The notes: a model not told the origin generated them from the letters alone. A stretch of 64,000 bases of DNA from an uncultured Verrucomicrobiae bacterium (GCA_963719495.1 CAVRCI010000013.1:1-64000), one strand, 5' to 3'; shown: positions 47,503 to 64,000, counted from the first letter of the stretch. Numbers and translations: made by a program.

Positions 47503-48687
47503 CTACTCGCCGGACCTCAGGCGCTCCGCCAACTCGAGGATCTCTTCACGGATGGCAAACAATTCCGCCCGGTAGTGGACGACACGCTTCGTCGGAAGGA
47601 TTGGATTTCCCGCGAGGGTATCACTCACCGAAATCGCGTCGTGCAGGAGCGCGATAGCCTGCTTCAGCAAAGCGGTCACCAACCCGGGGTCACTCGCCGC
47701 TGGCGAGGGCACGCTGGATCCCAACGCTCCGGCCAGCTTGCCATTCAAATTCACCAGGCACCCGAGAAATTCCCGGGCACCCGGGTTGTCACGCTGCGTC
47801 GTTCGCTCTCGAGCACGCGTTTCCGCCAGGAGCGCAAGGTAGGCATCCTTGGCCCGCTTGACGATGGGATGGAGCACCCCACGCTCGGCATCACGCACCC
47901 AATCGATCCCTTCACGGGCTGGGTCCAGCGCGTCGTTGTCACGATCCGGAGCCCAGGCATCCTCACTCACCGATGCGGGCTGAACGGAGCCTTCGTCGTT
48001 CGCGGCTTGGTCCGCATCAAGCGATCCCTCGAGCCACATCCACCCCATCTCGTGGGCAATGATCCGATCGCGATCAGGATGATCCGCGTATTTTTCGAGC
48101 AGCTCCCCGTAGCGTTCCCCGATCACGTCGGATTCTCGGAACAGCTGCTCGCAGCGGTATTCAGCCCAATTTTCTGCGCCGTTTTCCAAATCGACCCGAA
48201 CAGCGAAATCATCCGGCGCGTCGTCGAGGAGCCGCTGCCGCTCGGTAAGCTCCTCCACCGTGAAACTCCAAACGGGCTCGGAAACTTTCATCCGGTAATC
48301 GGCGCTCTCGATCACAACCCAGCCGCACAGATCGCCGAACCATTCGAGGTGAAGCGAGTTCGCCAGATGCGCGGGCACCCGTCCACCCGCTTTGATCAAG
48401 GCGTAAGCTTCGTCGAAAGGGATGTCGAAGACGCGAACCTTTCGCCCCGCGGTCAGAACCCCGGCGGATCCGCGGATCGGCGAGGTAGGCGGCCGGGTCG
48501 AAATCGGGACCGGCGACGGATTTTCGAATTGAAGTCGGCAGCCCGCGAGATCCGCCTCGCAGTTGCCCCTCAGATCGAGCTCGAGTGGTGCGGCGAGCCC
48601 GGCCAGCCAGATCCGACCGATGACGCGGCCCCGCACGCGATTGTCGATCTCGCCGCGAACGACGTTTTCATCAAGTCGCCAAGCCAT
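47503..48687 (-). CDS. conserved hypothetical protein
   Basis: long ORF starting MAWRLDENVVRGEIDNR with globular composition; the ORF-track N-extension runs into the repeat element. Confidence 0.7.
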   Translation of the reverse strand: MAWRLDENVVRGEIDNRVRGRVIGRIWLAGLAAPLELDLRGNCEADLAGCRLQFENPSPVPISTRPPTSPIRGSAGVLTAGRKVRVFDIPFDEAYALIKAGGRVPAHLANSLHLEWFGDLCGWVVIESADYRMKVSEPVWSFTVEELTERQRLLDDAPDDFAVRVDLENGAENWAEYRCEQLFRESDVIGERYGELLEKYADHPDRDRIIAHEMGWMWLEGSLDADQAANDEGSVQPASVSEDAWAPDRDNDALDPAREGIDWVRDAERGVLHPIVKRAKDAYLALLAETRARERTTQRDNPGAREFLGCLVNLNGKLAGALGSSVPSPAASDPGLVTALLKQAIALLHDAISVSDTLAGNPILPTKRVVHYRAELFAIREEILELAERLRSGE

Positions 48688-48781
48688 CGCTCCAGAGCGT
48701 CCGATAGCGGCGGCGAGCGGGCGAGAGAAAACCTGGGATCGGAGAAAACCTGGGATCAAAAGCTCGTCCCCCGATCCGAAC

Positions 48782-49352
48782 GGCTGTGATCGAAAACGCG
48801 TCCTGATCGGAAGAAGAATCTCGTGAACGCCAACAACGTCTGACCGAGGGGACGGCAGGAGCTGGCGACGAGTCCGTGGGAGATCGCCACGGTCCAAGGC
48901 CTCGCAGCATCGGGTCTCCCGCCTCATCCAGACGCCCCCCCAATTCCCGCGGAGTCGACCGATAAAACGTAACGGCCGTTACGTTTTATCGGGAGCGGAT
49001 TCATTCGTTCATTCGCTCGCTCGCTCGCCACTCCCCGTCCGGGGACCCCCGGATCCGCGGCTTTCCGACGGGCAAGCTCCGGTTCGCCAGCAGTAAGGCC
49101 CGGGCTCTTCCGAGGACCTCGCCACAGATCCATTACCTGGAAAATGTGACGTCCGTCACATTTTCCAGGTAATGGATTGGTGGGGCGCTCTGCCGCCAAC
49201 TCCGAGGGTAGCCGGAGATTTGCTTTTCCGCGCGGGTGGTATCATGGCCACCCAAGGGTGGCTTTACTCGCGGCTCGACGCGGGCTGGCTCGTTGATCCC
49301 AATCTCACTCGCACCTTTGGGCTCAGCCTTGGACGCACTTTCAATCACACCC
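48782..49352. mobile_element. ~571-bp non-coding structured element with terminal inverted repeats (MITE-like), copy 1
   Basis: near-identical to 62337-62910; TIRs 48782-48803 / 49331-49352; palindromes 48959-48992 and 49128-49177. Confidence 0.8.
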
Positions 49353-49407
49353 TGATCCCGCGCCCATTTCTAATTTCGCATTCCGCATTTCTAATTTAAG
49401 AGAAGCC

Positions 49408-49788
49408 ATGGTCAAAAAGCTCCTGCACACCCGCTACCGCGTCACCGACCTCGATCTCAACATCGCCTTCTACCGCGACGTCCTGGGTCTTGAGCAGACC
49501 CGCCGCTCGACCAGCGGGCGCGGGTCGGAACTCGTCTTCTTCAAAGCCCCGGGCAGTGAGGAAGAAATCGAAATCTGCAAGTTCGACGAAAGCGGTCCCG
49601 TCCAGGTCGGCCCCGACCTCACGCACCTCGCCTTCGAAGTCGAAGACATGGACGCTTTCGCCGCCCACGCGGAGAAACTCGGCTTCCCGCTCAGCGACGG
49701 CCCGACGAAGACTTCGAGCGGTTCGATCATCGCCTTCATCGACGCGCCCGACGGCTACGAAGTGGAACTCATTCAGCCCGCCCCCTGA
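49408..49788 (+). CDS. VOC family protein / lactoylglutathione lyase
   Basis: LLHTRYRV.DL, FYRDVLG, HLAFEVED, FIDAPDGYEVELI. Confidence 0.9.
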   Translation: MVKKLLHTRYRVTDLDLNIAFYRDVLGLEQTRRSTSGRGSELVFFKAPGSEEEIEICKFDESGPVQVGPDLTHLAFEVEDMDAFAAHAEKLGFPLSDGPTKTSSGSIIAFIDAPDGYEVELIQPAP

Positions 49789-49941
49789 CTCGGATCGCGA
49801 ATCGATCCCGGCGAACCCAGGGTGCAAATCCGGTTGGTCCCACGTTCCCAAGACTCCCCCAAACCTTCGGAACTCCCCCTCCCAACCGGACTGCTTCCTG
49901 AATACAACTTCTTATTCAGCACCCACCGTGCCAATTCTCCG

Positions 49942-52336
<2,395 letters not shown>

Positions 52337-52350
52337 CACCCACCATCAGC

Positions 52351-53091
52351 CTGCCCACCCCCAGTCCCTTCGAAAGTTTTCCCGCCACCGGGTTCCTCGC
52401 CCCGATCTTCGAAAGCGCCGACACCGCGCACGTCACCCCCGAAGCCCTCGACGCCAAGCTCGTCGTCGGCTGGCGGCACTTCGGCGCGCGCTTCTTCCGC
52501 TGCAATTTCTCGCTTCAGGACGATCAAGTCTGCGGCATCCTCCCGCTCCGCATCCCCGTCGCCGACTTCGCTCCCAGCAAAAGCCAACGCCGCGTCCAGC
52601 GCCGCAACGCCGACCTCGAAGTCCGCGTCGTCCCAGCCGTCCTCACCCCCGAATTCCACGACCTCTTCGAGCGCCACAAAACCCGGTTTCACGACAACGT
52701 CCCCGATTCCCTCCACGATTTCGTCGATCCGCACCCGGCCGCCATTCCCACCGACACCCGAGCGATCGAAGTGCGCGCCGAAGGCCGCCTCATCGCCGCG
52801 AGTTTCCTCGACATCGGCGGCGATTCCGCCTCCAGCGTCTACGGCATGTTCGACCCGGAATTTTCCGCCCGCAGCCTCGGTATCCTCACGATCCTGCACG
52901 AACTCGAGACCGCCGCCACCCTCGGCAAGCACCACTATTACCTCGGCTACTCCTACACCGTCCCGTCCCCGTACGATTACAAAAGCCGGTTCGCCCCGCT
53001 CGAAGCCTACGACTGGAACGTCGGCTGGAAACCCTACCCCCACGGCCTCCGCTGGTCCCGCCAAGTCGCCCAACCGCCAGCTCGAGAATAA
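52351..53091 (+). CDS. arginyl-tRNA-protein transferase-like (Bpt/ATE family)
   Basis: GWRHFG..FFR, SKSQRR..RRNADL, SSVYGMFDPE...RSLG, YYLGY, YKSRF.PLE; start uncertain (CTG assumed). Confidence 0.8.
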   Translation: MPTPSPFESFPATGFLAPIFESADTAHVTPEALDAKLVVGWRHFGARFFRCNFSLQDDQVCGILPLRIPVADFAPSKSQRRVQRRNADLEVRVVPAVLTPEFHDLFERHKTRFHDNVPDSLHDFVDPHPAAIPTDTRAIEVRAEGRLIAASFLDIGGDSASSVYGMFDPEFSARSLGILTILHELETAATLGKHHYYLGYSYTVPSPYDYKSRFAPLEAYDWNVGWKPYPHGLRWSRQVAQPPARE

Positions 53092-53152
53092 CCAAGTGCC
53101 CCGAGGAGCCGAGGTTGCGACCGCCACAAATTTCGCCATAGTCTCCGCCGAA

Positions 53153-54070
53153 GTGAAAGCAACCCGGTGGCTCCCAACCCTCGCGCTTATTGCCATCACC
53201 GCCGCCCCGCCCGCCACCGCCCAGACCTCCGACCCCGTCGCGGACTCACTCGCCCTCCTCCGAGCCCAAAAAGCAAACGAACAACCAGCGGCCCCCACGA
53301 CGCCGCCCCCCACCCATCACCAATCACCCATCACCAATCACGCGCCAGCTCCCGCCCCCGCGCCACCCCCCCGCCCGGAGCCGCTCGAAATCTTCTCCGC
53401 CATCGCCGCCGAAGACGCCACCTGGCTCGCCCGCCTCCTCGCCGCCGACGTCGACCCGAATCAGCCCTTCCCCAAGCCCGGCCCGAGCGACTTCACGCAA
53501 TACTACGCCGGCACCGACCTCCACTACTACCTCCGCACCGAACCCGGCTTCACGCCCCTCATGTTCGCCGCCACCATCGGCAACGAACCCGCCGTCCGCA
53601 CCCTCCTTGAGCAAGGCGCCAGCAAAGGCCGCCTCACCGACCGCTCCAAGACCTCCGCCCTCTACCTCGCCGCCCGCGCCGGCCACATCGGGATCATGCA
53701 AATCCTCATGGGCATTACCCCCGACTCCGACGTCGCCCAATACCGCATCCACGTCAGCCTCGGCGACCAGCGAGTCGTCCTCTGGAAGGGCGAAAAGATC
53801 ATCCTCTTCTCGAAAATTTCCTCCGGCAAGGAATCCACCCCCACCGAACCCGGCACCTACCTCGTCACCAGCAAACACCGCGACCACACCTCGACCCTCT
53901 TCGACGCGAAGATGCCGTATTTCATGCGCTTCTCGTGCGGTGATTTCGGCCTCCACGCCGGCGAACTCCCGGGCTACGCCGCCAGCCACGGCTGCATCCG
54001 CATGCCTCTAAGAGACGCCAAGGAGTTCTACAACGCCACCCCCATCGGCACCCTGGTCGTGGTCGACTAA
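53153..54070 (+). CDS. ankyrin-repeat + L,D-transpeptidase (YkuD) protein
   Basis: signal peptide; GFTPLMFAA, SALYLAARAGH ankyrins; GLHAGELPGYAASHGCIRMP. Confidence 0.88.
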   Translation: MKATRWLPTLALIAITAAPPATAQTSDPVADSLALLRAQKANEQPAAPTTPPPTHHQSPITNHAPAPAPAPPPRPEPLEIFSAIAAEDATWLARLLAADVDPNQPFPKPGPSDFTQYYAGTDLHYYLRTEPGFTPLMFAATIGNEPAVRTLLEQGASKGRLTDRSKTSALYLAARAGHIGIMQILMGITPDSDVAQYRIHVSLGDQRVVLWKGEKIILFSKISSGKESTPTEPGTYLVTSKHRDHTSTLFDAKMPYFMRFSCGDFGLHAGELPGYAASHGCIRMPLRDAKEFYNATPIGTLVVVD

Positions 54071-54870
54071 ACCGCCCGCTCGGCAAAAACCTCCCGCCGC
54101 ACCCGCCCCCACCCATCGAACCCCGCCACCGCCGCGAACCGCAACGTCAGCACGACCCCCAGCGCCATCACCGCCAGGATCGCGAACATGATCACGATCT
54201 GATACTTGATCGCCCCCATCGGCGAAGCCCCCGCCAACATTTGCCCCGTCATCATCCCCGGCAGCGACACGATCCCGATCGTCATCATCGTTGCAATCAT
54301 CGGCCGCAACGCCCGCCGCGCCGATTCCCGGTAAACCGGTCGCAGCGCCTCCTCCCGCGTCGCCCCGTTCGCCAGCCGATACTCGTATTCCGCCGCCCCG
54401 CGACCCCGAGCCGTCTCGAAAAAATGCGTCAGCGCCACGATGTTCCCCGACATCGTATTGCCCAGCAGCATCCCGCTGATCACCACCAGATACCGAGCGT
54501 CCAGCAGCCGGTCGATCCGCACGATCACGCCGTTGAAATACAACACCACCGCCAGCGCCGAGATCGCCGTCGCCCCGCCGACCGGCCCCAGCATCCGCCG
54601 CCACCGCAGGTCGCTGTTCCGACAAGCGCTCGCCGCCGCCGCCGTGATCATCACCAGCAACCAGGCCAGATTCAGCCACCCGGAATTCAGATCGAACAAA
54701 AACTGCAGGTAGATCCCCGCCAACACCAACTGCGCCACCATCCGCCCCCCCGCAATCCCGATGTCCCGCATCAGTCCAAGCCGCCACATCCACGACACGC
54801 CCAGCGGCAAAGCCACCAGCGCCACCGCCGCCGCCATCTGCCACCACCCCAGATCCGGAGCCCCGCCCAT
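54067..54870 (-). CDS. ABC transporter permease, FetB/YbbM (UPF0014) family
   Basis: RMVAQL, GMLLGN, GIVSLPGMMTGQMLAG, AIKYQI. Confidence 0.9.
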   Translation of the reverse strand: MGGAPDLGWWQMAAAVALVALPLGVSWMWRLGLMRDIGIAGGRMVAQLVLAGIYLQFLFDLNSGWLNLAWLLVMITAAAASACRNSDLRWRRMLGPVGGATAISALAVVLYFNGVIVRIDRLLDARYLVVISGMLLGNTMSGNIVALTHFFETARGRGAAEYEYRLANGATREEALRPVYRESARRALRPMIATMMTIGIVSLPGMMTGQMLAGASPMGAIKYQIVIMFAILAVMALGVVLTLRFAAVAGFDGWGRVRREVFAERAV

Positions 54871-54970
54871 CACGCGAGTCCTCCGACCTCGCAACGAGTC
54901 CGGGGAGCGCGGGCTTCCAGCCCGCCGCTTCGACCTTCCAGGTCGGAGCCTCGTTCCCAAAAGCGAAGCT

Positions 54971-55618
54971 TCACTCCCTCCCCCCGACGTTCGAGCCGCG
55001 CCCCTCTCCCAGCGGCATCGAAACCACCCTTGCCCCCGGATCCCAAGCCTCATCGTGCGAGATCACCACCACGGCGCAATCCGCCGGCAATTTCGCGAAG
55101 CGCCCCACCACTGCCCGTCTCGATTCCACATCCAAAGCCGCCGTCGGCTCATCCAGCAAAAAAACCTTCCGCCCCAACGTCAAGGCAATCGCCAGCCCCA
55201 CCCGCTGACGCTCCCCACCCGACAACCCCGCTATATCCTGTCCAAGCACCGCCCGAGCCAGCCCCAAATCCTCGATAACCCGATCATCGAAGTCCCGCCC
55301 CCGATTCGCCCGACACCCCAACACCGACTCGATCGCCGCCCGCACCGTCCCCGCTCCGAGCGCCACCGCCTGCGGCACGTAAGCCACCTCCCGCCTCACC
55401 GCCCACACGGAATCCGTATCCACCGCGCGCCCCCGAAAAAACACCGCCCCCGCGTCCACCGCTTCGAACCCGAGCAACACCCGAAACAAAGTCGATTTCC
55501 CCACCCCCGAAGCCCCTCGAATCACCACCCGCTCCCCCTCCGCCACCGCGAGCGAAAAATCCCGAAGCACAACCCGCCCCCCAAACCCCAAAGTCACCCC
55601 CCGCCACTCGATCACCAT
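54971..55618 (-). CDS. ABC transporter ATP-binding protein (FetA-like)
   Basis: GASGVGKST, LSGGERQR, LLDEPTAALD, ISHD. Confidence 0.9.
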   Translation of the reverse strand: MVIEWRGVTLGFGGRVVLRDFSLAVAEGERVVIRGASGVGKSTLFRVLLGFEAVDAGAVFFRGRAVDTDSVWAVRREVAYVPQAVALGAGTVRAAIESVLGCRANRGRDFDDRVIEDLGLARAVLGQDIAGLSGGERQRVGLAIALTLGRKVFLLDEPTAALDVESRRAVVGRFAKLPADCAVVVISHDEAWDPGARVVSMPLGEGRGSNVGGRE

Positions 55619-55647
55619 CCCACCCGAACCGCCCCCCACGCACCACC

Positions 55648-55690
55648 TGTCATGCTGAGCGAAGCGAAGCATCTCTGGCTGACACTCCCC
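55648..55690 (+). repeat. dispersed intergenic repeat (VMLSEAKH type)
   Basis: first 26 nt identical to 12744-12769. Confidence 0.75.
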
Positions 55691-55796
55691 ACCGCCCGCC
55701 AAGCGACCAGATCACCAAACCCCGAATCCCCCCCACACCACGCGATCATCACCTCATCCACCCCTTGGCGTTCTCCGCGTTCTTCGCGCGAAACCA

Positions 55797-56948
55797 TCAA
55801 ATCTCCAAATTCTTCGGAAACCGACTCAACACCCGGTTCCCAGCTTCCGTCACCACCACCACATCCTCGTGCCGCACGCCCCCAATCCCCGGCACGTAGA
55901 TCCCCGGCTCCACCGTCATCACCTGCCCCGCCCGAAACGTCGTTTTCGAGATCCGCGGCTCCTCGTGAATCTCCAACCCCAGCCCGTGCCCGAGCCCGTG
56001 GAAAAACCCCGTCCACCGCCCGTCCCGCTGCTCCGTCGGAAATCCCTCCTCCTCGAAAAAATCCCGCACCGCGTCCTGCAACTCACCCCCCGCGACACCC
56101 GGAGCGATCGTCTTCAGCGCCCACCGCTGACCCGCCAGACACACCTCCCACATCTCCCGCTGCGCCTCCGACGCCCGCCCCCGCACCACCGTCCGCGTCA
56201 TGTCCCCGAAAAATCCCGTCGCCGTCACCCTCGGAAACACGTCCAGAATGATCAACTCGTTCCCCCGCAGCGGTCCCCGCCCCCGCTCGTGCGGATCGCA
56301 AGCCTGCTCGCCGCCCGCCACGATCGTGTGATTCCCCCCGATCCCGCCCGCCGCCAGCATCGCCGACTCGATCACCCCCCGCACCGCCTCCGCCGTCAGC
56401 TCCACCTTCCCCCGCACCAGCACCCCATCCCTCTTCCGAATTTTCGCCGCCCGCAGCACATCCACGCCCGCTTGCAGCCCAATCTCCGTCACCCGCAGCG
56501 CCGCCGAAATGAGTTTCAGTTCCCCCGCCGTCTTCGTCTCCCGATCCGGCCAGAAATGCCCCGCCACCGGAGTCACCGCCACCCCCAGCTTCCCCAAGCC
56601 CACCGCCATCCCCAAAGGAAAATCCCCCGGCACCTTCGCCCGTTTCACCCCGCGCTCGCGCAGAAACGCCGCCACCACCTCCGCAAACGAAGGCTCCTTC
56701 CGCCCCCGCCGCGCCGCCTTCACCCGCTCCGCCACGTCGCTGTAGCTCACCACCTCGTCCACCCGCGCCTCCCGCCGACCCCGATCCACCTCGAGATCGC
56801 TCAACAAAGCCGCCGACCGCCCCCCCACCTCGACAAACGCAAACGGATCCGGCACCGAAAACCCCGTCGCGTAGAGCATATCCGCACTCGCCTCGCTCGA
56901 AGCCACGATCAACTTCGCCCCATTTTTCCTTTCTTTCACAACGGCCAT
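55797..56948 (-). CDS. Xaa-Pro aminopeptidase (M24 family)
   Basis: PH, ILDVFP, GDMTRT, HGLGHGLGLEIHE, TVEPGIY, VRHED. Confidence 0.93.
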   Translation of the reverse strand: MAVVKERKNGAKLIVASSEASADMLYATGFSVPDPFAFVEVGGRSAALLSDLEVDRGRREARVDEVVSYSDVAERVKAARRGRKEPSFAEVVAAFLRERGVKRAKVPGDFPLGMAVGLGKLGVAVTPVAGHFWPDRETKTAGELKLISAALRVTEIGLQAGVDVLRAAKIRKRDGVLVRGKVELTAEAVRGVIESAMLAAGGIGGNHTIVAGGEQACDPHERGRGPLRGNELIILDVFPRVTATGFFGDMTRTVVRGRASEAQREMWEVCLAGQRWALKTIAPGVAGGELQDAVRDFFEEEGFPTEQRDGRWTGFFHGLGHGLGLEIHEEPRISKTTFRAGQVMTVEPGIYVPGIGGVRHEDVVVVTEAGNRVLSRFPKNLEI

Positions 56949-57003
56949 CAGGCCGCATTCTGCCTCTCAACTTTCAACTCTCAACCCTCAACTTTCCTCA
57001 CCC

Positions 57004-57846
57004 ATGCACCGCTGGACCCGCCTCACCACCGCCAAATGGGAAGACTCCTGGGCCGAACGCCTCAGCTTCCTCGGCCCCGACCGCGTCGCGTTCACCACCT
57101 GGCCCAACGGCAAAACCGTCCGCATCGAAGCCTTCGTCGAAGAAATAACCGCCGCCAAGCTGGTCTCCGAATTCGGCGGCAAAGTCGCCAAGGCCCCCCT
57201 CTGGACCGGCGACCCCGTCACCCCCCGCGCTCCCCTCCAGATCCGCGGGCGCCTCACCGTCTACCCCGACGCCGCCAGCTTCGCCGAGTGGCAGACCGCC
57301 CCCCCGGGACCGCGGAAGAAACCCGGCATCCACGTCCCCGCCGGCATGGCCTTCGGCACCGGCGACCACGCCACCACCGCCAGTTGCCTGCGCATGCTCG
57401 CCGACCTCACCGCCGATCTCCCGCCCAACTGGACCGCCCTCGACGCCGGCACCGGCTCCGGCATCCTCGCCCTCGCCGCCCGCGCCCTCGGAGCCACCTC
57501 CGTCGAAGCCTTCGACAACGACCCCGCCTGCGTCCGGATCACCAAGGAGAACGCCCAACTCAACGCAATCACCAAAATCAAAGTCACTCGAGCCGACGTC
57601 ACCACCTGGAACCCAAAAACCCAACACGACCTCGTCCTGGCGAACCTCTTCAGCGAACTCCTCATCCGCGTCATCCCCACGCTCCGAGCCGCCGCCAAGC
57701 CCCACGGCCACCTCATCTTCTCCGGAGTCCTCCGAGACCAACTCGAAGAAGTCACCACCGCGCTCAAAGCCCACGGCTACCAAATCCACCGCACCGTCGT
57801 CCGAGGCAAATGGTCCGCCGGCCACGCTCAACTCGAAAAGAGCTGA
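57004..57846 (+). CDS. prmA: ribosomal protein L11 methyltransferase
   Basis: GMAFGTGDHATT, LDAGTGSGILA, DND, LANL, SG. Confidence 0.88.
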   Translation: MHRWTRLTTAKWEDSWAERLSFLGPDRVAFTTWPNGKTVRIEAFVEEITAAKLVSEFGGKVAKAPLWTGDPVTPRAPLQIRGRLTVYPDAASFAEWQTAPPGPRKKPGIHVPAGMAFGTGDHATTASCLRMLADLTADLPPNWTALDAGTGSGILALAARALGATSVEAFDNDPACVRITKENAQLNAITKIKVTRADVTTWNPKTQHDLVLANLFSELLIRVIPTLRAAAKPHGHLIFSGVLRDQLEEVTTALKAHGYQIHRTVVRGKWSAGHAQLEKS

Positions 57847-57850
57847 AAAA

Positions 57851-59182
57851 TCACACCACCAAATCCTCCTCCGGACCCACCTCCGCGCCCGGAGCCCCCG
57901 CCCGTCCCATCGCCGCCAACCCCAGTGACACCACCCCCACCCGCCCCACGAACATCAGCGTGATCAGCACGCACTTCCCCGCCGCCGACAAATCCCCCGT
58001 AATCCCCCGACTGAGCCCCACCGTCCCCAGCGCCGATCCCACCTCGAACACCACGTTCTCAAACGTGTGTTGAGTGTCCACCAGCAACATCGCGATCGCC
58101 CCGCCCGCGAAAACGAGCAGATACATCGTCATCGCCGCAAACGCCGCCTGCAGCCGATGCGTCGGGAGCCGACTCCCGAAGAACGTAATCTCCTTCCGCC
58201 CCCGCACCGCACTCCAGGTCGCCGCCAACCCCGCCGACCACGTCGTGCTCTTCAACCCGCCACCCGTTCCACTCGGCGAAGCCCCCAGGATCATGAGAAT
58301 CACCGTCATCAGAATCGCCGCCCCCGCCAGATTCCCGATCGGCACCGAGTTGAACCCCACCGTCGTCAAAGCCGACATCGACTGAAAAAACGACGCCATC
58401 CCCCGCTCACCGAGCGGTAATTCCCGCATCAGCGGATCGAAAAAAATGACCACCGCCCCGAGCACCAATCCGCCCCCCGTCGCCGTCAGAATGATCCGCG
58501 TCGTCAAAGTCATCCGCCGACCCCGCCGCAACTTCAGCCACAAATCACTGCTCACGATGAACCCACACGCCCCGGCCAGACTCAGAATCGACACGATCGC
58601 GTTCACCGCCACGTCCCCCCGGAATCCCTCCAAACTATCCGGAAAAACGCTGAACCCCGCCGTGCAGAACGCCGACACCGAGTGAAAGATCGCCGGCCAA
58701 AGCGGCGACTCCACCCCCGCCTGCGAAAACGCCACCCACAGCCCCAGCGCCCCCAACACCTCCAGCCCCAGCGTAAACGCCACCGCCTGACGAATGAAAT
58801 CCCCCGTGTCGAAATCATCCGGCATCGCGAAGACCACCCGCCCGATCCGCACCCGCGATTCATCCATCGCCCGCCGAGTCGCCATGATCATGAACGACCC
58901 AAAGGTCATGTAACCCAGCCCCCCGACCTGAATCCCCACCAGCAGCACCAGCTCCCCCCAGAACCCATAGGCGTCCGGCGTATTCACCGTCACCAACCCC
59001 GTCGTGCTCACCGCCGACACCGCCATGAACAAATTGTCCAAGACCCCCACCCGCTCCCCCGCCCACATGAACGGAATGCAAAGCAGCCCGGCGATGCAGA
59101 CCGCGTAAAACGCGTAGCCCATCGTCACCACCTGCACCGGACTCAACCGCCCCACCATCTCCCGCACCCGCATCAGCATCAT
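57851..59182 (-). CDS. TrkH/KtrB family potassium uptake membrane protein
   Basis: SAVSTTGL, SAFCTAGF, TTVGF, GASPSGTGGGLK, SALGTVGLS. Confidence 0.93.
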   Translation of the reverse strand: MMLMRVREMVGRLSPVQVVTMGYAFYAVCIAGLLCIPFMWAGERVGVLDNLFMAVSAVSTTGLVTVNTPDAYGFWGELVLLVGIQVGGLGYMTFGSFMIMATRRAMDESRVRIGRVVFAMPDDFDTGDFIRQAVAFTLGLEVLGALGLWVAFSQAGVESPLWPAIFHSVSAFCTAGFSVFPDSLEGFRGDVAVNAIVSILSLAGACGFIVSSDLWLKLRRGRRMTLTTRIILTATGGGLVLGAVVIFFDPLMRELPLGERGMASFFQSMSALTTVGFNSVPIGNLAGAAILMTVILMILGASPSGTGGGLKSTTWSAGLAATWSAVRGRKEITFFGSRLPTHRLQAAFAAMTMYLLVFAGGAIAMLLVDTQHTFENVVFEVGSALGTVGLSRGITGDLSAAGKCVLITLMFVGRVGVVSLGLAAMGRAGAPGAEVGPEEDLVV

Positions 59183-59640
59183 CGTCGCCCCGTTTAGTCA
59201 GCCAAACGAACACCCGCAATGATCCGGATGTTCGGATTCAGCGAAAAATTACGTCCCAGCGGCATCGAGCCAATCACCAGTCAAAAAATCTCCTGAAAGT
59301 CGATGCCAAATCGACGACGGACGAGCCAAGACTCCAGAAAAAGAATGCCCAAGGCCAACCCCAGCTCGTCACGTTGGAGGCGGCGCTCCCCGCACGCTGG
59401 CGATAGCCGCCGCCTGCGAACCGAGCGTCGAAGTCCACCCGGCATCGCCCGCCAATTCGCTCGGAATGCGAGTTTCACCCATCGTTCCCTGCTCTCCTCC
59501 ATCCGGCCTGACCCGCAATCTCGGAGTGGACAGGATTTACATTCCAGAGTTCCGCACCGTCGGTGCCGACGTTGCCATCGCCATCGAGGAAGCTGGCAAA
59601 CTTGCCCACAGCCCTCCGGAGCTCATTGGCGAATGAGGGG

Positions 59641-59711
59641 AGCGGGTGAAGGGAATCGAACCCTCGTGTGCAGTTTGGAAGACTGCCGTTCTACCATTGA
59701 ACTACACCCGC
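59641..59711 (-). tRNA. tRNA-Gly(TCC)
   Basis: GCGGGTGTAGTTCAATGGTAGAAC..CTTCCAA..GGTTCGATTCC..CACCCGCT. Confidence 0.95.
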
Positions 59712-59765
59712 GTTTGAAGAGCGGAAATCATGCCCGGTTTCGGCGGGAAGTCAATCCCGGCTCGC

Positions 59766-62282
59766 TCACTCGAAGCGGAGCGCCGCGGCCGGTGAGATCC
59801 CGGAGGCCCGCCACGCGGGGAGGATCGCGGCGACGACGGCGACCGGGATGATCCAGAGCGGCGTGGCGACCAGGAACCCGAGTGGATACGCGAGGTCGAT
59901 CGTCCAGCCGAAGTAGGCTCTGTTGACGACGAACGTGAGCACCACCGCGAGGCACGCCCCGGACGCGACGCCGATCCCACTGGCGATGGCACCGATGAGG
60001 CTGGCTTCGCGCAGGAACAGACCAACGACCTGCAAGCGCGACGCGCCGATGGCGCGCAGGGTGCCGATCTCGCGTTCGCGCTCGGCGGCCAGAATGAGAA
60101 GTGCGAGAAGGACGCCGGCGGCGGCGACTCCGATAGCAATCGTGCGAAGGACGAGGGTGACGGCGAACGTTTGGTTGAAGATCTCGAAGATGCGTTGGCG
60201 AAGCGCCTGATTCGAATAAATGGAGAACCGTCCCTCGCTTGCAAAATGCGCGCGGAACGTTTCGCCAAACGCCGCGGGATCGGTGCCAGGGGTCAGCGAG
60301 ATGGCGAGCGATTGGGCTCCGGTGGCGGGCCAATGGCGTTCGTAATTTTCCCGCGAGATCCGGATGATGCCGGTCGTACGGGCGTAATCCCGGTAGATCT
60401 CGGCGACCCGGAAGGCGGCGGGTCCGGCGGGCGTTCCGAGCTCGAGGGTGTCGCCCGCGCGGACGTCGAAACGGTTGGCGAAGGGCTCGGATATGGCGAC
60501 GTGATCCGGCGCGAGGTAGGCGGTGCCGGCTTCGGGGGAACTCGAGACGACCGCCAATGCGGTTCGCTCGTCGCGGAAGTCGATCGGGACTTCGCTGAAG
60601 GTGGCGACGTTCGTGACGGCGGGGTCGGCGCGCGTCCAGGCCAGGGAGGTGGGCGGCAGGCTCGATTGGACCCCGGCGATCTCGTTCCCGGCGGAGCCGA
60701 TGAAGAGGTCCGCGACGAGGGTTTCGCCGATCCAACGGTCGACGCTTCCGCGGAAGGAATGAATCATGACAGACACGCCGACGGTCATCGCGATGGCGGC
60801 GGCGAGCGCGGCGATGGTGATGGCGTTGCGATGATTGAATCGCGCGAGATTCTGCGCGGCGAGCCGGAGAAAACGCGGGGCGCGGCGGAGTAACGCGGCG
60901 GCGGCGGTGATGACGATGGGCGTGACGAGCGAGAACCCGGCGAGCACGAGGAACGCGCTGATGAAGCCGAGCGGCGCGATTCGAAAAATCAGCGCGGCGA
61001 CGCCCGCGGCCAAGGCTCCAACGAGACTGACGGTCCCGACGACGAGCCAGGTGAGCGGCACGCGGCGGAAGCGTTCGGCGGCGCTGCCGGGTCGGAGAAC
61101 CGAAGCCGGATCACAGCGCGCGGCCTCCGAGGCGGGAATCCACGCGGCGAGGAGCGCGGCTCCAAGGCCGGCGGCGAGGGCGGCCCCGATCTGCGGCGGC
61201 GAGAGGTAGAGCCGCTCGATGCTGAGAACGACGTAGAGCGAGCTGATCGTCTTCGCGACCGGGGCGGTGAGGACCTGCGCGATCGGGAGGGACGCGAGGA
61301 CTCCCAGGACGCTGCCGACGCTCCCGGCCACCCCGGCCTCCGCGAGGAAGAGCAAGCGCACCTCCGCGCGGCTCGCGCCGAGTGCGCGCAGCGTCCCGAT
61401 CTCGGCGCGGCGGCGGACGACCGACGCGGAGATCGTGTTGTAGATGAGAAACATTCCGACGAGCAACGACACGAGGCTCAACGCGCTGAGATTCAGCTGA
61501 AACGCGCCGAGCATGGATTCGACCTGGTCGCCGCGGCGGGCGGGCGGGGCCACGGTGACGTCGCCGGGGACAATGCGGCGCAGGGCGGCGGTGGCGCCTT
61601 CGATCCGGTTGCGGTCGACGACAAGCAGGACGGCGGAGAGTTCGCCGGGGCGGGCGAACAATTCCTGCGCCCAGCCGATGTCCATCGCGACCATCCGCGG
61701 ATCGAGGCTGGCGGCGGCGTCTTCTGGGTCCATAACGAAGGCCGGGGCGAGCGTGCGGGTGCCGCGATCGGTGAGGACTTCGACGGGGCCGTCGTGGCCG
61801 AGCGTCGCCGCGAAGGCGGTGGAAACGGCAATGGCGTCCGGTTCGCGGAGCCAGGCTTCGACGTCGAAGTTCGATTGGTTGGCACCGAGGAGTTCGAAGG
61901 TGCGGAGTTGTTCTCCGCGGAAGGGATCGAGGCCGAGAACGCGGAGGTATTCGCCGGGCTGGTCGGGCAGCGTGACGATGCCTTCGAGCAACGGCGACGC
62001 GGCGCGCACGCCGGGGACTCCCGCGATGGCGGGCAGGAGCGCGTCGTCGATGCGACCACGCACTTCGAGGTTGGCGCGACCCGCGACCATCTCGATCCCG
62101 GCGCGGAAGCTCTGGTTCGCGCTGCGGTTGGCGATTTGAATGGCGAGAAAGACGGCCACGCCGAGCGCGATGCTGGCGATATTCAGCGCGAAGAGCACGG
62201 GATGCCGACGAATGCCCCGCAGAAACTGGCGGACGAAGAGCGTGGGAAAGTGGCGGGTGATGGTCGGCACGAAGAGGCGCAA
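59766..62282 (-). CDS. ABC transporter permease (FtsX/MacB-like, duplicated)
   Basis: SIALGVAV, RRRAEIGTLRALGAS, EREREIGTLRAIGAS, PAWRA..ISPAAALRFE; start uncertain. Confidence 0.9.
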   Translation of the reverse strand: MRLFVPTITRHFPTLFVRQFLRGIRRHPVLFALNIASIALGVAVFLAIQIANRSANQSFRAGIEMVAGRANLEVRGRIDDALLPAIAGVPGVRAASPLLEGIVTLPDQPGEYLRVLGLDPFRGEQLRTFELLGANQSNFDVEAWLREPDAIAVSTAFAATLGHDGPVEVLTDRGTRTLAPAFVMDPEDAAASLDPRMVAMDIGWAQELFARPGELSAVLLVVDRNRIEGATAALRRIVPGDVTVAPPARRGDQVESMLGAFQLNLSALSLVSLLVGMFLIYNTISASVVRRRAEIGTLRALGASRAEVRLLFLAEAGVAGSVGSVLGVLASLPIAQVLTAPVAKTISSLYVVLSIERLYLSPPQIGAALAAGLGAALLAAWIPASEAARCDPASVLRPGSAAERFRRVPLTWLVVGTVSLVGALAAGVAALIFRIAPLGFISAFLVLAGFSLVTPIVITAAAALLRRAPRFLRLAAQNLARFNHRNAITIAALAAAIAMTVGVSVMIHSFRGSVDRWIGETLVADLFIGSAGNEIAGVQSSLPPTSLAWTRADPAVTNVATFSEVPIDFRDERTALAVVSSSPEAGTAYLAPDHVAISEPFANRFDVRAGDTLELGTPAGPAAFRVAEIYRDYARTTGIIRISRENYERHWPATGAQSLAISLTPGTDPAAFGETFRAHFASEGRFSIYSNQALRQRIFEIFNQTFAVTLVLRTIAIGVAAAGVLLALLILAAEREREIGTLRAIGASRLQVVGLFLREASLIGAIASGIGVASGACLAVVLTFVVNRAYFGWTIDLAYPLGFLVATPLWIIPVAVVAAILPAWRASGISPAAALRFE

Positions 62283-62336
62283 GCTAGCACAGCTTCAGGG
62301 GGAAATCAGGCTTCCAGCCAGTCTCGGCGGGCATCC

Positions 62337-62910
62337 GGGTGTGATCGAAAGTGCGTCCTGATCGGAAGAAGAATCTCGTGAACGCCACGAACGTCTGACC
62401 GAGGGGACGCTAGGAGGCTGACGACGAGTCCGTGGAAGATCGCCACGGCCCAAGGCCTGGCAGCATCGGACCTCCCGCCTCATCCAGACGCCCCCCCAAA
62501 TTCCCGCGGAGTCGCCCGATAAAACGTAACGGCCGTTACGTTTTATCGGGAGCGGAATCGTTCATTCATTCGTTCGTTCGCTCGCCACTCCCCGTCCGGG
62601 GACCCCCGGATCCGCAGCCTTCCGACGGGCAAGCTCCGGCTCGCCAGCGGTAAGGCACGGGCTCTTCCGAGGACCTCGCCACCAATCCATTACCTGTAAA
62701 ATGTGACGCCCGTCACATTTTACAGGTAATGGATTGGTTGGGGCGCTCCGCCGCCAACACCGAGGTTAGCCGGAGATTTGCTTCTCCGTGCGGGTGGTAT
62801 CGTGGCCACCCGAGGGAGGGTTTACTCGCGGCTCGACGCGGGCTGGCTCGTTGATCCCAATCTCACTCGCAACTTTGGGCTCAGCCTTGAACGCACTTTC
62901 AATCACACCC
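62337..62910. mobile_element. ~574-bp non-coding structured element with terminal inverted repeats (MITE-like), copy 2
   Basis: TIRs GGGTGTGATCGAAAGTGCGTCC / GAACGCACTTTCAATCACACCC; palindromes 62515-62550 and 62681-62738. Confidence 0.8.
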
Positions 62911-63027
62911 CGGGCAGCCTGCCCGGCGGTCGCCGAGCGGAATGGTCGCACGATCCATCGGCAGCTCACATCGTCCGGATTCTCTCGCGCCGACCCAGTC
63001 GCGCAAGGCCCGGGCGGGATGCCTGTT

Positions 63028-64000
63028 TCACCCGACGCCGTCGTCGGCGGCGGCGATGAGTCGTTTCTCCAGTCGGGCGAGCGCGTTGCGGTCTTCGAGG
63101 CGGGTTCCGTCGCGACCGAGCACGTAGAACGTGTCGAGCGCGATTTCCATCTCGGTCGTGACCCGGGACAGCCCGATGGACACACCCTCCTGACCGAAGG
63201 CGCGAAGCAGGGAATACAGGAGCCCAAGCCGGTCGGGGGATTGGATCTCGATAATCGTGAAAATCGGGTGCGAGAGATTGTCGATCACGACGCGGGCGGG
63301 CCGATCGACCTCGTGCGAGACGCGGTAGCTTTTCAGAGAGGACGGTTTGGCGAAAAGCGGCGTGAAATCGTAGTCGGGCTGGTCGAGCGACTGGTGCAGC
63401 GCCGACTCGAAGCGCGTGATGTCGCGCGGGTCGTCGACGGGCGTGTGGGTCGAATCGGCGACCCGGAACACGTCGAGCGCGAGGTTGTCTCCGCGGGTGA
63501 AAATGTCGGCGCTGAGGATGTTGATCCGAGCGGCGACGAAGGCCCCGGCGACCCGTTCGAGGAAACGCTCGCGATCCCAGCCGCACAACCACACCTCGCT
63601 GTGACCGAGTTGCGGACGGTGCTTCCATTCGATGACCGGTGCGAGGGCAATTTCGGAATGCGCCCCAGCGAGCCGCTCGAAAAATTGGTGGAAAAGCCGG
63701 AGGTGATTGGTGATGTCCTCGGCGGAGAACGCCCGGAAGTAGCGCTCGGGCATGTAGTCGAACTGCGCCGCGATTTCCTCGGCGAACGCCTTCGGCAGCG
63801 CTTTGACGACGGCGGCTTTGGTGGTGCCGCGATCGATGGATTCGGCGGCGGACTCGGCTGGACCGCTTTCGAGGTAGCGGGAGGTGCTGCGGAAGAGGCT
63901 CCAGACGAGACCCTCCTTCCAGTCGCTCCAATTCTCCCCGCTGGTGCCCATGCCATCGGCGACGGTGAGCAGCATGAGCGCGTCGAGATTCGCGCGATTC
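63028..64000 (-). CDS. glnD: bifunctional uridylyltransferase/uridylyl-removing enzyme, 3' part
   Basis: LLTVAD...WSDWK end of HD domain; two ACT domains (DR.RFL, ILSADIFTR; DRLGLL, DTFYV); runs off the window. Confidence 0.9.
   Translation of the reverse strand, partial: NRANLDALMLLTVADGMGTSGENWSDWKEGLVWSLFRSTSRYLESGPAESAAESIDRGTTKAAVVKALPKAFAEEIAAQFDYMPERYFRAFSAEDITNHLRLFHQFFERLAGAHSEIALAPVIEWKHRPQLGHSEVWLCGWDRERFLERVAGAFVAARINILSADIFTRGDNLALDVFRVADSTHTPVDDPRDITRFESALHQSLDQPDYDFTPLFAKPSSLKSYRVSHEVDRPARVVIDNLSHPIFTIIEIQSPDRLGLLYSLLRAFGQEGVSIGLSRVTTEMEIALDTFYVLGRDGTRLEDRNALARLEKRLIAAADDGVG

Follow-up and report, generated by a model that had tools for sequence, protein, structure and literature searches.

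The two related segments in the window, a stretch of 64,000 nucleotides from an uncultured Verrucomicrobiae bacterium (GCA_963719495.1, CAVRCI010000013.1:1-64000), are copies of a non-coding miniature transposon (MITE). The element is most likely selfish DNA rather than a gene for a structured RNA. Very probably it was moved in trans by a two-ORF transposase of the ISKra4 family and carries its hairpins as dispersed-palindrome cargo. Copy 1 (48782-49352, 571 bp) and copy 2 (62337-62910, 574 bp) lie in the same orientation, with the coordinates of the original prediction, and their identity, put at roughly 90% by eye, is 92.5% by blastn (92.8% over ungapped columns). Both have the 22-bp imperfect terminal inverted repeats (TIRs) described before, the left arm of copy 1 being indeed the diverged one, and the perfect palindrome of 34 or 36 bp, the hairpin with a stem of 24-28 bp and the TTCG tract were each found in the sequence. 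The features are as follows.

48782..49352, + strand: MITE copy 1, 571 bp, target duplication decayed
48782..48803, + strand: copy 1 left TIR, diverged
48959..48992, no strand: copy 1 palindrome a, perfect over 34 bp; belongs to PAL1, the family found on both sides of a PaaX-like gene
49000..49027, + strand: copy 1 TTCR/CTCG microsatellite
49128..49177, no strand: copy 1 palindrome b, PAL1 variant with extended arms, contains the pair G49140:C49165
49331..49352, - strand: copy 1 right TIR
49408..49788, + strand: flanking gene of a glyoxalase/VOC-family protein (context only)
59766..62282, - strand: flanking ABC permease gene with FtsX/MacB_PCD domains (context; start codon uncertain)
62281..62309, - strand: putative sigma-70-like promoter facing the permease gene, weak match
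62296..62336, + strand: left part of the REP-like repeat split by copy 2
62328..62336, + strand: copy 2 left 9-bp target site duplication (TSD)
62337..62910, + strand: MITE copy 2, 574 bp
62337..62358, + strand: copy 2 left TIR
62515..62550, no strand: copy 2 palindrome a, 36-bp perfect, PAL1
62558..62585, + strand: copy 2 TTCR microsatellite
62681..62738, no strand: copy 2 palindrome b, 28-bp stem, PAL1 variant, contains the pair T62697:A62722
62889..62910, - strand: copy 2 right TIR
62911..62919, + strand: copy 2 right 9-bp TSD, 8/9 match to the left one
63028..64000, - strand: 3' part of glnD, flanking (context only)

Inside the element no transposase HMM match was found and three overlapping ORFs have no Pfam match. 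HMMs of ORF1 and ORF2 (see below), run on six frames of 17 copies, gave non-significant best E values of 0.35 and 2.3, respectively. A reading of the interior as a decayed transposase or PaaX gene was given up, as no HMM match was significant, and scattered tblastx matches to GC-rich loci (E ~1e-4) were taken as noise.

The genome carries 20 copies, 14 of full length, four internally deleted with both ends kept (three of these have lost palindrome b) and two truncated. Imperfect TIRs of 22 bp stand at both ends of all 17 copies listed, and the 9-bp TSD is perfect in 7/18 copies and matches at 8/9 positions or better in 10/18. The microsatellite differs widely in length among copies and is missing in the four oldest aligned ones. 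The absence of a clear TSD noted earlier holds for copy 1, where the duplication is decayed (2/9), but not for copy 2, where it is 9 bp long with one mismatch. At the copy 2 locus, the permease gene and glnD are adjacent and the site is empty in five of five congeners; its target is intact in paralogous repeats, with uninterrupted copies of the REP-like repeat at C12:8198 of this genome and in the congener G005. Upstream of the glyoxalase gene the element is also missing in all five congeners, but synteny differs there. Overall, it was present in 2/61 genomes, a further genome having palindrome-only matches, and a GTDB scan with the TIR gave 99 matches, mostly due to chance. The survey of copy number, exact ends and empty sites proposed earlier thus yielded about 20 copies with 9-bp TSDs at the TIRs and an empty copy 2 locus in congeners. 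Together with an autonomous insertion sequence (IS) with matching ends, described below, this bears out the suggestion of a non-autonomous mobile DNA. Pieces of the element were also seen in one DNA sequencing run, which may be the source sample and is not counted as support; no RNA run was listed as a holder among the sequencing runs searched.

All that would favour an assembly duplication is the presence of two copies in the window. However, the genomic copies differ by 5-27% and carry individual TSDs, and the flanks of copies 1 and 2 are unrelated to each other, as had been stated before; the distinct TSDs rule out this origin for all practical purposes. Identity to copy 2 is 73-78% in an old group and 91-95% in a young group, with no other copy identical to it (maximum 95%), and at least two waves of copying would have produced these groups.

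The search for a transposase-bearing IS with a matching TIR, suggested with the original prediction, led to ISKra4-family ISs in metagenomes and in the same order: the same ends bound two-ORF elements of ~1.4 kb elsewhere. The TIR is common to 16 metagenome elements of 1396-1937 bp, and the end of the MITE copy at C4:230356 matches the metagenome ISs at 19/19 bases. From the same order, the element L429 (1467 bp, perfect 9-bp TSD) agrees with the right end of the MITE copy at C10:64878 at 23/25 bases, and two further elements, L425 and L437, have perfect TSDs. NF033572 was the best match in 10/10 ORF2s scanned, above its cut-off in two (L425 and L437); the ORF2s of six elements scored 180-204 bits (cut-off 205) and left the N-terminus of the model unmatched. 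The partner transposases are of the Mutator-like DDE type, with invariant D112, D189 and E302. An A-run is located at the ORF1/ORF2 junction (305-410 bp) in all 16 metagenome elements and also in L429. This genome keeps a relic of such an IS at C12:44200-44489, which matches L429 at 69% in ORF1 and, over 53 nt of the end, at 83%; searched alone, ORF1 and the relic had no NCBIfam match. Perfect 9-bp TSDs were found in one of the 16 metagenome elements and in three of five complete same-order elements, and their scarcity in these records may stem from chimeric flanks of collapsed repeats.

The interior of the MITE has no homology to the IS past ~28 bp of the end, and the MITE is therefore not a simple deletion derivative of it. 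As a mechanism, the transposase would bind the ends, excise the element, perhaps as a circle as in other p-MULT families, and, from either end, insert it upstream of sigma-70 promoters. An intact cognate transposase was not found among the 16 contigs of this assembly, which is 98.6% complete, and the element has therefore probably become stranded. Among other candidate movers, IS256 (PF00872) had no match in the genome; DDE_Tnp_1 had 27, and the ends, recovered around 15 of these, were unlike the TIR. Viral scans revealed no relative of the ISKra4-type transposase or of the PaaX-like protein discussed below, and plasmids gave no match.

The only intact ISKra4-family IS of this genome, 1750 bp long and present in six near-identical copies, has different ends. 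It is intact, exceeds the NF033572 cut-off and makes 9-bp TSDs, and one of its copies sits 28 bp from a MITE copy. Cross-mobilisation of the MITE by this resident IS is nevertheless quite unlikely: the two TIRs agree in no more than an A-run and the first five bases, its transposase is ~23% identical to the cognate-type transposases, and the MITE copies are diverged from copy 2 (at most 95% identity), unlike the near-identical copies of the IS.

The assignment to a two-ORF ISKra4-family mover agrees with the published description of the family (p-MULT 4; Guerillot et al. 2014, PMC3942029; NF033572), as GGG ends, inverted repeats of 18-39 bp and direct repeats of 8-9 bp are shared with our element, which differs in having no transposase. 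The partner IS joins a two-ORF layout with promoter bias, features that PMC3942029 places in separate groups (ISMich2 and ISKra4, respectively). The ISMich2 group has a two-ORF transposase with a predicted -1 frameshift (PMC3942029); for the partner, with its ORF1, ORF2 and junctional A-run, a frameshift is likewise predicted. Members of the ISKra4 group insert upstream of sigma-A promoters, on either side, at a fixed 13-17 bp from the -35 box (PMC3942029). In Table S1 of that paper our TIR motif was not found, ISLesp4 sharing only the first 10 bases, and the term MITE does not occur in its main text.

The MITE copies tend to lie upstream of -35-like TTG motifs, at a distance of 27 bp. TTG occurs at offset 28 in 7/18 copies (p ~2e-4 after 60 offsets, the TTG offset having been chosen by eye ahead of the test), and flanks from other records (18/163 with TTG) peak at the same offset 28. 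The peak is present on both sides, 27 bp from the inverted repeat and 18 bp past the TSD, compared with an offset of 15-17 bp for the ISKra4 group (PMC3942029). At copy 2, the predicted permease promoter consists of a weak -35 at 62309-62304, 27 bp from the TIR, a 17-bp spacer and a -10 at 62286-62281. For copy 1, neither a recognisable TSD nor a promoter at the offset was found.

The original prediction pointed out a double change, G49140:C49165 in copy 1 against T62697:A62722 in copy 2, which is correct, and proposed a structure maintained through selection or intra-hairpin conversion. Of these, conversion is the better account, and selection on an RNA fold is not supported. Copy 2 as a whole folds far better than shuffled sequence (z -10.5 on the + strand, -9.4 on the - strand), and 27/168 pairs of the RNAalifold structure show at least one double change, as would be expected of a functional structured RNA of ~570 nt that spreads as a MITE with its fold kept by selection. 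However, the covariation term is only -0.17 kcal/mol, with low power given the 13 related copies. Double Watson-Crick swaps centre on palindrome b (13/35 changed cells), compared with 12/195 in all other predicted helices outside TIRs and palindromes. This rate of 6% equals that of the TIRs, and about half of the changed cells outside palindromes break pairs. Without palindromes and TIRs the joined interior folds about like shuffles (z -0.7 and -1.8 on the + and - strand), although one segment, in the right interior, reaches -2.4/-1.9. The four internally deleted copies, three of them without palindrome b, the very variable microsatellite and the restriction to 2/61 genomes also speak against a conserved RNA. 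The proposed Rfam check, run on copy 2, gave six matches, all far below gathering score, and ARAGORN found no tRNA or tmRNA gene at eight loci. Taken together, these observations render the large structured ncRNA of the original prediction very unlikely.

Arm symmetry is also seen in palindrome copies outside the element. In the variable flanks of free palindromes, each arm agrees with its own partner at 96/190 positions against 68.7 expected, and at 147/260 against 104 (p=1e-4 each). That free copies show the same arm-to-arm symmetry points to template switching as its cause. Replication template switching on single-stranded DNA would keep the hairpin arms matched and yield double changes in one event. 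The G:C swap is shared by two copies not grouped in the tree. Palindrome a is near invariant over 13 copies diverging by up to 27%. Reverse-complement loop variants (GACC/GGTC) were left unused as a sign of spacer inversion, as C-to-T changes at GGCC fit equally well. We regard the element as a clear case in which the dynamics of DNA palindromes, rather than selection on an RNA, give rise to an apparent compensatory change.

Both hairpins belong to PAL1, a 34-bp palindrome family with 55 matches in the genome, 36 of them in MITE copies or fragments. According to a crude gene caller, the 19 free PAL1 copies are all intergenic, as are 20/26 copies of a second family, PAL2. The units of both are near-perfect palindromes of 32-36 bp with a GGCC centre and without GTAG or CGTC tag. 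Two free PAL1 copies bracket a PaaX/Cas2-like gene (PF20803), and a second PaaX/Cas2-like gene in the same genome has PAL2 as its own family; the protein of the bracketed gene probably recognises the palindromes. The two PaaX-like proteins are encoded at C1:367102-367884 and C4:68533-69303. Alongside PaaX-like homologues in the genus, PAL1 matches number 55 in this genome, 4 in G005, 1 in G001 and 0 in G002-G004. In 400 other genomes of the class, six matched the PAL1 pattern at 1-2 places each, controls doing so at a similar rate, and none of seven such loci checked had a PaaX-like gene nearby. The PaaX-like copy on contig C1 has SNF2, TOTE-type and integrase genes as neighbours and no paa genes. 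The PaaX repressor (PDB 8a39) is homologous over profile positions 44-257 (E 5.6e-13), but it has L-S-E where the PaaX-like family carries an invariant Asp in an F-D-x-P motif, and its gene differs from the one found here, which is bracketed by palindromes at both ends. No description of such a gene-palindrome unit was found in the literature searched. An early reading as CRP-like or dif-like palindromes was dropped once the link to PaaX appeared. An integron at C1:364-372 kb was set aside as well; attC sites have bulges, which these palindromes lack.

The PAL1 palindromes likely ride as cargo of the MITE, and the literature searched yielded no account of palindromes of this kind within a MITE. 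As in palindrome-gene-palindrome cassettes, the two palindromes of the element face one another, and the genome has 12 Y1_Tnp matches (with no PAL1 match near any), so that the element might be a REPIN, or a PaaX cassette that has collapsed, with a RAYT or the PaaX/Cas2-like protein as mover and the outer inverted repeats incidental. This is highly improbable: the 9-bp TSDs abut the outer TIRs, a position that excludes a RAYT as mover and largely refutes the whole reading, the TIRs agree with those of DDE ISs, no homology to PaaX was seen in the interior (best E 0.95), and copies missing one palindrome keep both ends and TSDs.

It is somewhat less improbable, though still unlikely, that the MITE is kept as a mobile regulatory module, which lands upstream of promoters, delivers two putative PaaX-like binding sites and so builds a regulon. 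The promoter-offset bias, the share of PAL1 matches in MITE copies, the near invariance of palindrome a and the co-occurrence of PAL1 with PaaX-like homologues across the genus would fit. On the other hand, the sites stand ~200 bp in from each end, a long way from the -35, and shift in spacing with microsatellite length, the insertions are missing in congeners, the genes beside the copies share no evident theme, and arm homogenisation by itself would slow palindrome divergence. Moreover, sister MITEs with the same TIR carry unrelated REP-type hairpins, which points to general capture rather than a dedicated regulator. A broader scheme, doubtful as well but slightly less so, would be a three-level stack of parasites. 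In it, the PaaX/Cas2-like protein, with its conserved Cas2-type Asp, spreads or binds its own palindromes in the manner of RAYT/REP but with an unrelated fold; the promoter-seeking MITE captured two of them, became their main vector (36/55), plants paired sites and assembles a regulon; and end capture of local hairpins is a general route of REP-like spread.

The element resembles the bacterial MITEs Correia/NEMIS, RUP, ERIC and Nezha, which likewise have TIRs, TSDs, no transposase, a stable predicted fold and internal motifs as cargo, such as the IHF site and promoters of the Correia element (PMC3184786, PMC3733652). According to these papers, they are mostly under 200 and up to ~400 bp long compared with ~570 bp, and ERIC-type elements are flanked by TA and not by a 9-bp TSD; the cargo of our element is a pair of palindromes from a PaaX-like cassette. 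As an ISKra4-type MITE it is unusually large. With REP/REPIN-RAYT systems (PMC3733652, PMC3337134), PAL1 and PAL2 share that each brackets one gene and has tens of dispersed intergenic copies with extended hairpins; they differ in bracketing PaaX/Cas2-like (PF20803) genes instead of a Y1/HUH transposase and in the missing GTAG/CGTC tag. In several lineages, unrelated local hairpin repeats are enclosed by this TIR, pointing to a DDE route by which REP-like repeats may disperse. As one genome has a pair of PaaX/Cas2-like genes with separate palindrome families, it permits a comparison of cognate and non-cognate pairs.

The two repeats of about 570 bp in the window are very probably copies of a miniature transposon (MITE) of the ISKra4 family. 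Both were found where the original prediction had placed them, with the 22-bp terminal inverted repeats (TIRs), both palindromes and the TTCG tract as claimed; their identity, estimated at roughly 90%, was measured as 92.5%, and their flanks are unrelated.

MITE copies in the window
48782-49352: MITE copy 1, same orientation as copy 2, upstream of a glyoxalase-family gene
62337-62910: MITE copy 2, same orientation as copy 1, between an ABC permease gene and glnD

A profile search of the host genome detected 14 full-length copies, four internally deleted ones that keep both ends and two truncated ones, which fall into two classes of 91-95% and 73-78% identity to copy 2. Of 18 copies, 7 have a perfect 9-bp target-site duplication (TSD), and in 10 of the 18, copy 2 included, it matches at 8 or more of the nine positions. 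Three copies, among them copy 1, reach at most 5/9, and other lengths gave no better result; the earlier statement that no clear TSD exists thus holds for copy 1 but not for copy 2. Copy 2 interrupts a REP-like repeat; intact versions of this repeat, with one target 9-mer only, occur elsewhere in the host genome and in the congener G005. In all five congeners the permease gene directly neighbours glnD, and the element is absent. Among 60 relatives, a homologous copy was seen only in the congener G001, as a one-palindrome form with 81% identity to the host copy C13:525476; G005 has the palindromes without the MITE. About 20 copies, 9-bp TSDs, the locus empty in 5/5 congeners and insertion sequences (IS) with like ends bear out the suggested non-autonomous mobile element.

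Directly left of copy 1, with its decayed TSD, a unit of about 16 bp is tandemly duplicated (48729-48760). Further left lies an ORF of about 394 codons (47503-48687, minus strand) without Pfam or NCBIfam match; it shows no synteny with the glyoxalase gene in the congeners. The TTCG tract is missing from old MITE copies and has grown to about 30 units in C4:973-1644.

The TIR pattern matched in 10 of 401 genomes of the phylum, the host among them, and in at least 138 metagenome stretches. Among the metagenome matches listed, 16 elements of 1396-1937 bp carry the TIR at both ends, and all 16 have an A-run at the ORF1/ORF2 junction. For the six ORF2s scanned, the ISKra4-family transposase model NF033572 was the best match (180-204 bits, cut-off 205, N-terminus of the model unmatched), and the D, D and E columns of the transposase are invariant. 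Two-ORF transposases are described for the ISMich2 group in the part of PMC3942029 covered here. Only one of the 16 elements has a perfect TSD, a scarcity that probably reflects chimeric flanks on short contigs. Closer transposase homologues were detected in 11 of 300 other genomes of the host's own order. One of these IS loci, L429 (1467 bp, perfect 9-bp TSD), shares 23 of 25 bases with MITE copy C10:64878 at the right end of the latter; L425 and L437 exceed the NF033572 cut-off and have perfect TSDs, and L426 and L440 are without one. In the host assembly no intact cognate transposase was found, only a relic (C12:44200-44489) that lacks the left end and joins the start of ORF1 (69% identity to L429) to the right end (83%). 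No derivation of the MITE interior from an IS was seen. The resident intact ISKra4-family IS has ends unlike those of the MITE.

Resident IS in the host genome
C1:378135, C2:43445, C3:186377, C10:24891, C13:493210, C14:180800: single-ORF ISKra4-family IS, 1750 bp, six near-identical copies

This IS is also present in G005, and one copy lies 28 bp from a MITE copy. Three elements of about 200 bp (L189, L211, L217) have as left 'end' a TIR-like sequence coding for the transposase motif GEIESAH, possibly a cryptic internal end used as left end. In a literature search no title or abstract combined ISKra4 and MITE, ISfinder and most subscription journals being outside its scope, and the TIR motif is absent from Table S1 of PMC3942029.

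The text consulted from that source gives direct repeats of 8-9 bp and inverted repeats of 18-39 bp for the ISKra4 family, and promoter targeting from both sides for the ISKra4 group. In our study, a TTG starting at offset 28, counted from the TIR, is present in 7 of the 18 MITE copies; the other offsets average 0.7 (p about 2e-4, corrected for 60 offsets; this offset was spotted by eye before the statistical test). The TTG peak of 163 flanks from other records, chance TIR matches included, falls at 28 too: 18 matches there and 8 or fewer at any other offset. Compared with the promoter distance in the covered part of PMC3942029, that of the MITE is somewhat longer; matches to a -10 box are weak.

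The G:C pair of copy 1 that is T:A in copy 2 was verified in the long hairpin. It had been read as a sign of maintained structure, by selection or intra-hairpin conversion, and possibly of a large structured ncRNA. Copy 2 does fold strongly (z of -10.5 and -9.4 on its two strands). The interior segments give z of -0.1 to -0.4 (left, middle), -2.4/-1.9 (right) and -0.7/-1.8 when joined; the RNAalifold covariation term over 13 copies is -0.17 kcal/mol. Counted over changed cells, double Watson-Crick swaps amount to 13/35 for palindrome b, 1/5 for palindrome a, 2/34 for the TIRs and 12/195 for the rest, and the opposite strand gives the same picture. Rfam gave six matches on copy 2, all far under the gathering score, and ARAGORN no gene at eight loci. 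It is therefore highly improbable that the MITE is a structured RNA. The G:C swap occurs in copy 1 and in C13:492605, which are separated in the tree, the latter grouping with two T:A copies (97/96 support). Free palindromes extend the pairing of their own arms into flanks that otherwise vary, well beyond what permuted arms give (p=1e-4 for each of the palindrome families PAL1 and PAL2). Palindrome b is lost in three deletion variants, two of them, by reading of the alignment, at short direct repeats. The concentration of swaps in palindrome b, the own-arm pairing and these deletions fit template switching at inverted repeats, of which a single event can produce such double changes (PMC8794818, in the part covered). 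A selective constraint on the hairpin, as DNA or as RNA, may also keep the arms paired.

Palindromes a and b both belong to PAL1, which has 55 matches in the host genome; 19 lie neither in MITE copies nor in MITE fragments, and the MITE carries about two thirds of the total. A PaaX-like gene with a Cas2-like central domain (C1:367102-367884, PF20803) has a free PAL1 copy at each end, one about 50 bp upstream and the other containing the stop codon. The second PaaX-like gene of the genome is bracketed by PAL2 (C4:68488-69335), of which a crude gene caller places 12 of 26 copies in divergent spacers and six in genes. Close PaaX-like loci in the order have a flanking palindrome in 10 of 14 cases (on both sides in five), its sequence varying from gene to gene; one partial locus has a 3' palindrome, four more distant loci have none, and the palindrome of genome G051 occurs in 10 places. 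PAL1 counts in the genus (55, 4, 1, 0, 0, 0) track the PaaX-like gene, intact in the host and G005, split in G001 and not found in G002-G004, a co-occurrence drawn from few, related genomes. The family has an invariant Asp in F-D-x-P that is missing from the solved PaaX 8a39. This residue, which may correspond to the Cas2 catalytic one, sits in a stretch matching Cas2 weakly (E 3e-4). Judged from sequence, the MITE cargo is palindromes tied to a predicted PaaX/Cas2-like gene, and in this link lies its residual interest. MITEs with cargo motifs are already known (PMC3184786 and PMC3733652, portions covered here). No paper linking PaaX to palindromes and Cas2-like proteins, or to REP sequences, came up in a literature search, most subscription journals being outside its scope.

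At C1:364291-372900, four PAL1 copies lie between genes for an SNF2 helicase, the PaaX-like protein and a TOTE primase/helicase, the last of which seems to be frameshifted; an AAA ATPase and a tyrosine recombinase resembling integron integrases are encoded alongside. This array looks cassette-like, and a similar one is present in G005 (C17). Free PAL1 doublets without TIRs, spaced 100-170 bp (C13:278081/278248, C9:130128/130229, C5:62129/62298), are possibly MITE-interior precursors or collapsed cassettes.

A sister MITE of the host has related ends, 9-bp TSDs and a GTAG-type hairpin doublet inside, which also flanks a Y1-transposase fragment (C8:183857).

Sister MITE in the host genome
C14:28569-28727, C13:508573, C14:54064, C11:223704, C14:78327, C4:316252, C3:176682: sister MITE, 159 bp

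Short MITEs in other records have the TIR of the main MITE and unrelated hairpins inside, and the cargo motif of genome G415 has 76 matches, mostly outside MITEs by position. The ends may capture repeats, or repeats may invade the MITE. A 280-bp MITE beside an autonomous IS (L426:900-1179, genome G474) has related ends and another REP-like hairpin set, and at C14:28569-31631 the 159-bp sister MITE lies inside a duplication around an IS4-type element. GTAG-type REPs form a large family in the host genome, with 205 matches to a fuzzy pattern that also catches chance sequences; many stand in tandem arrays or as doublets with a distance of about 160 bp. Y1_Tnp has 12 matches there.
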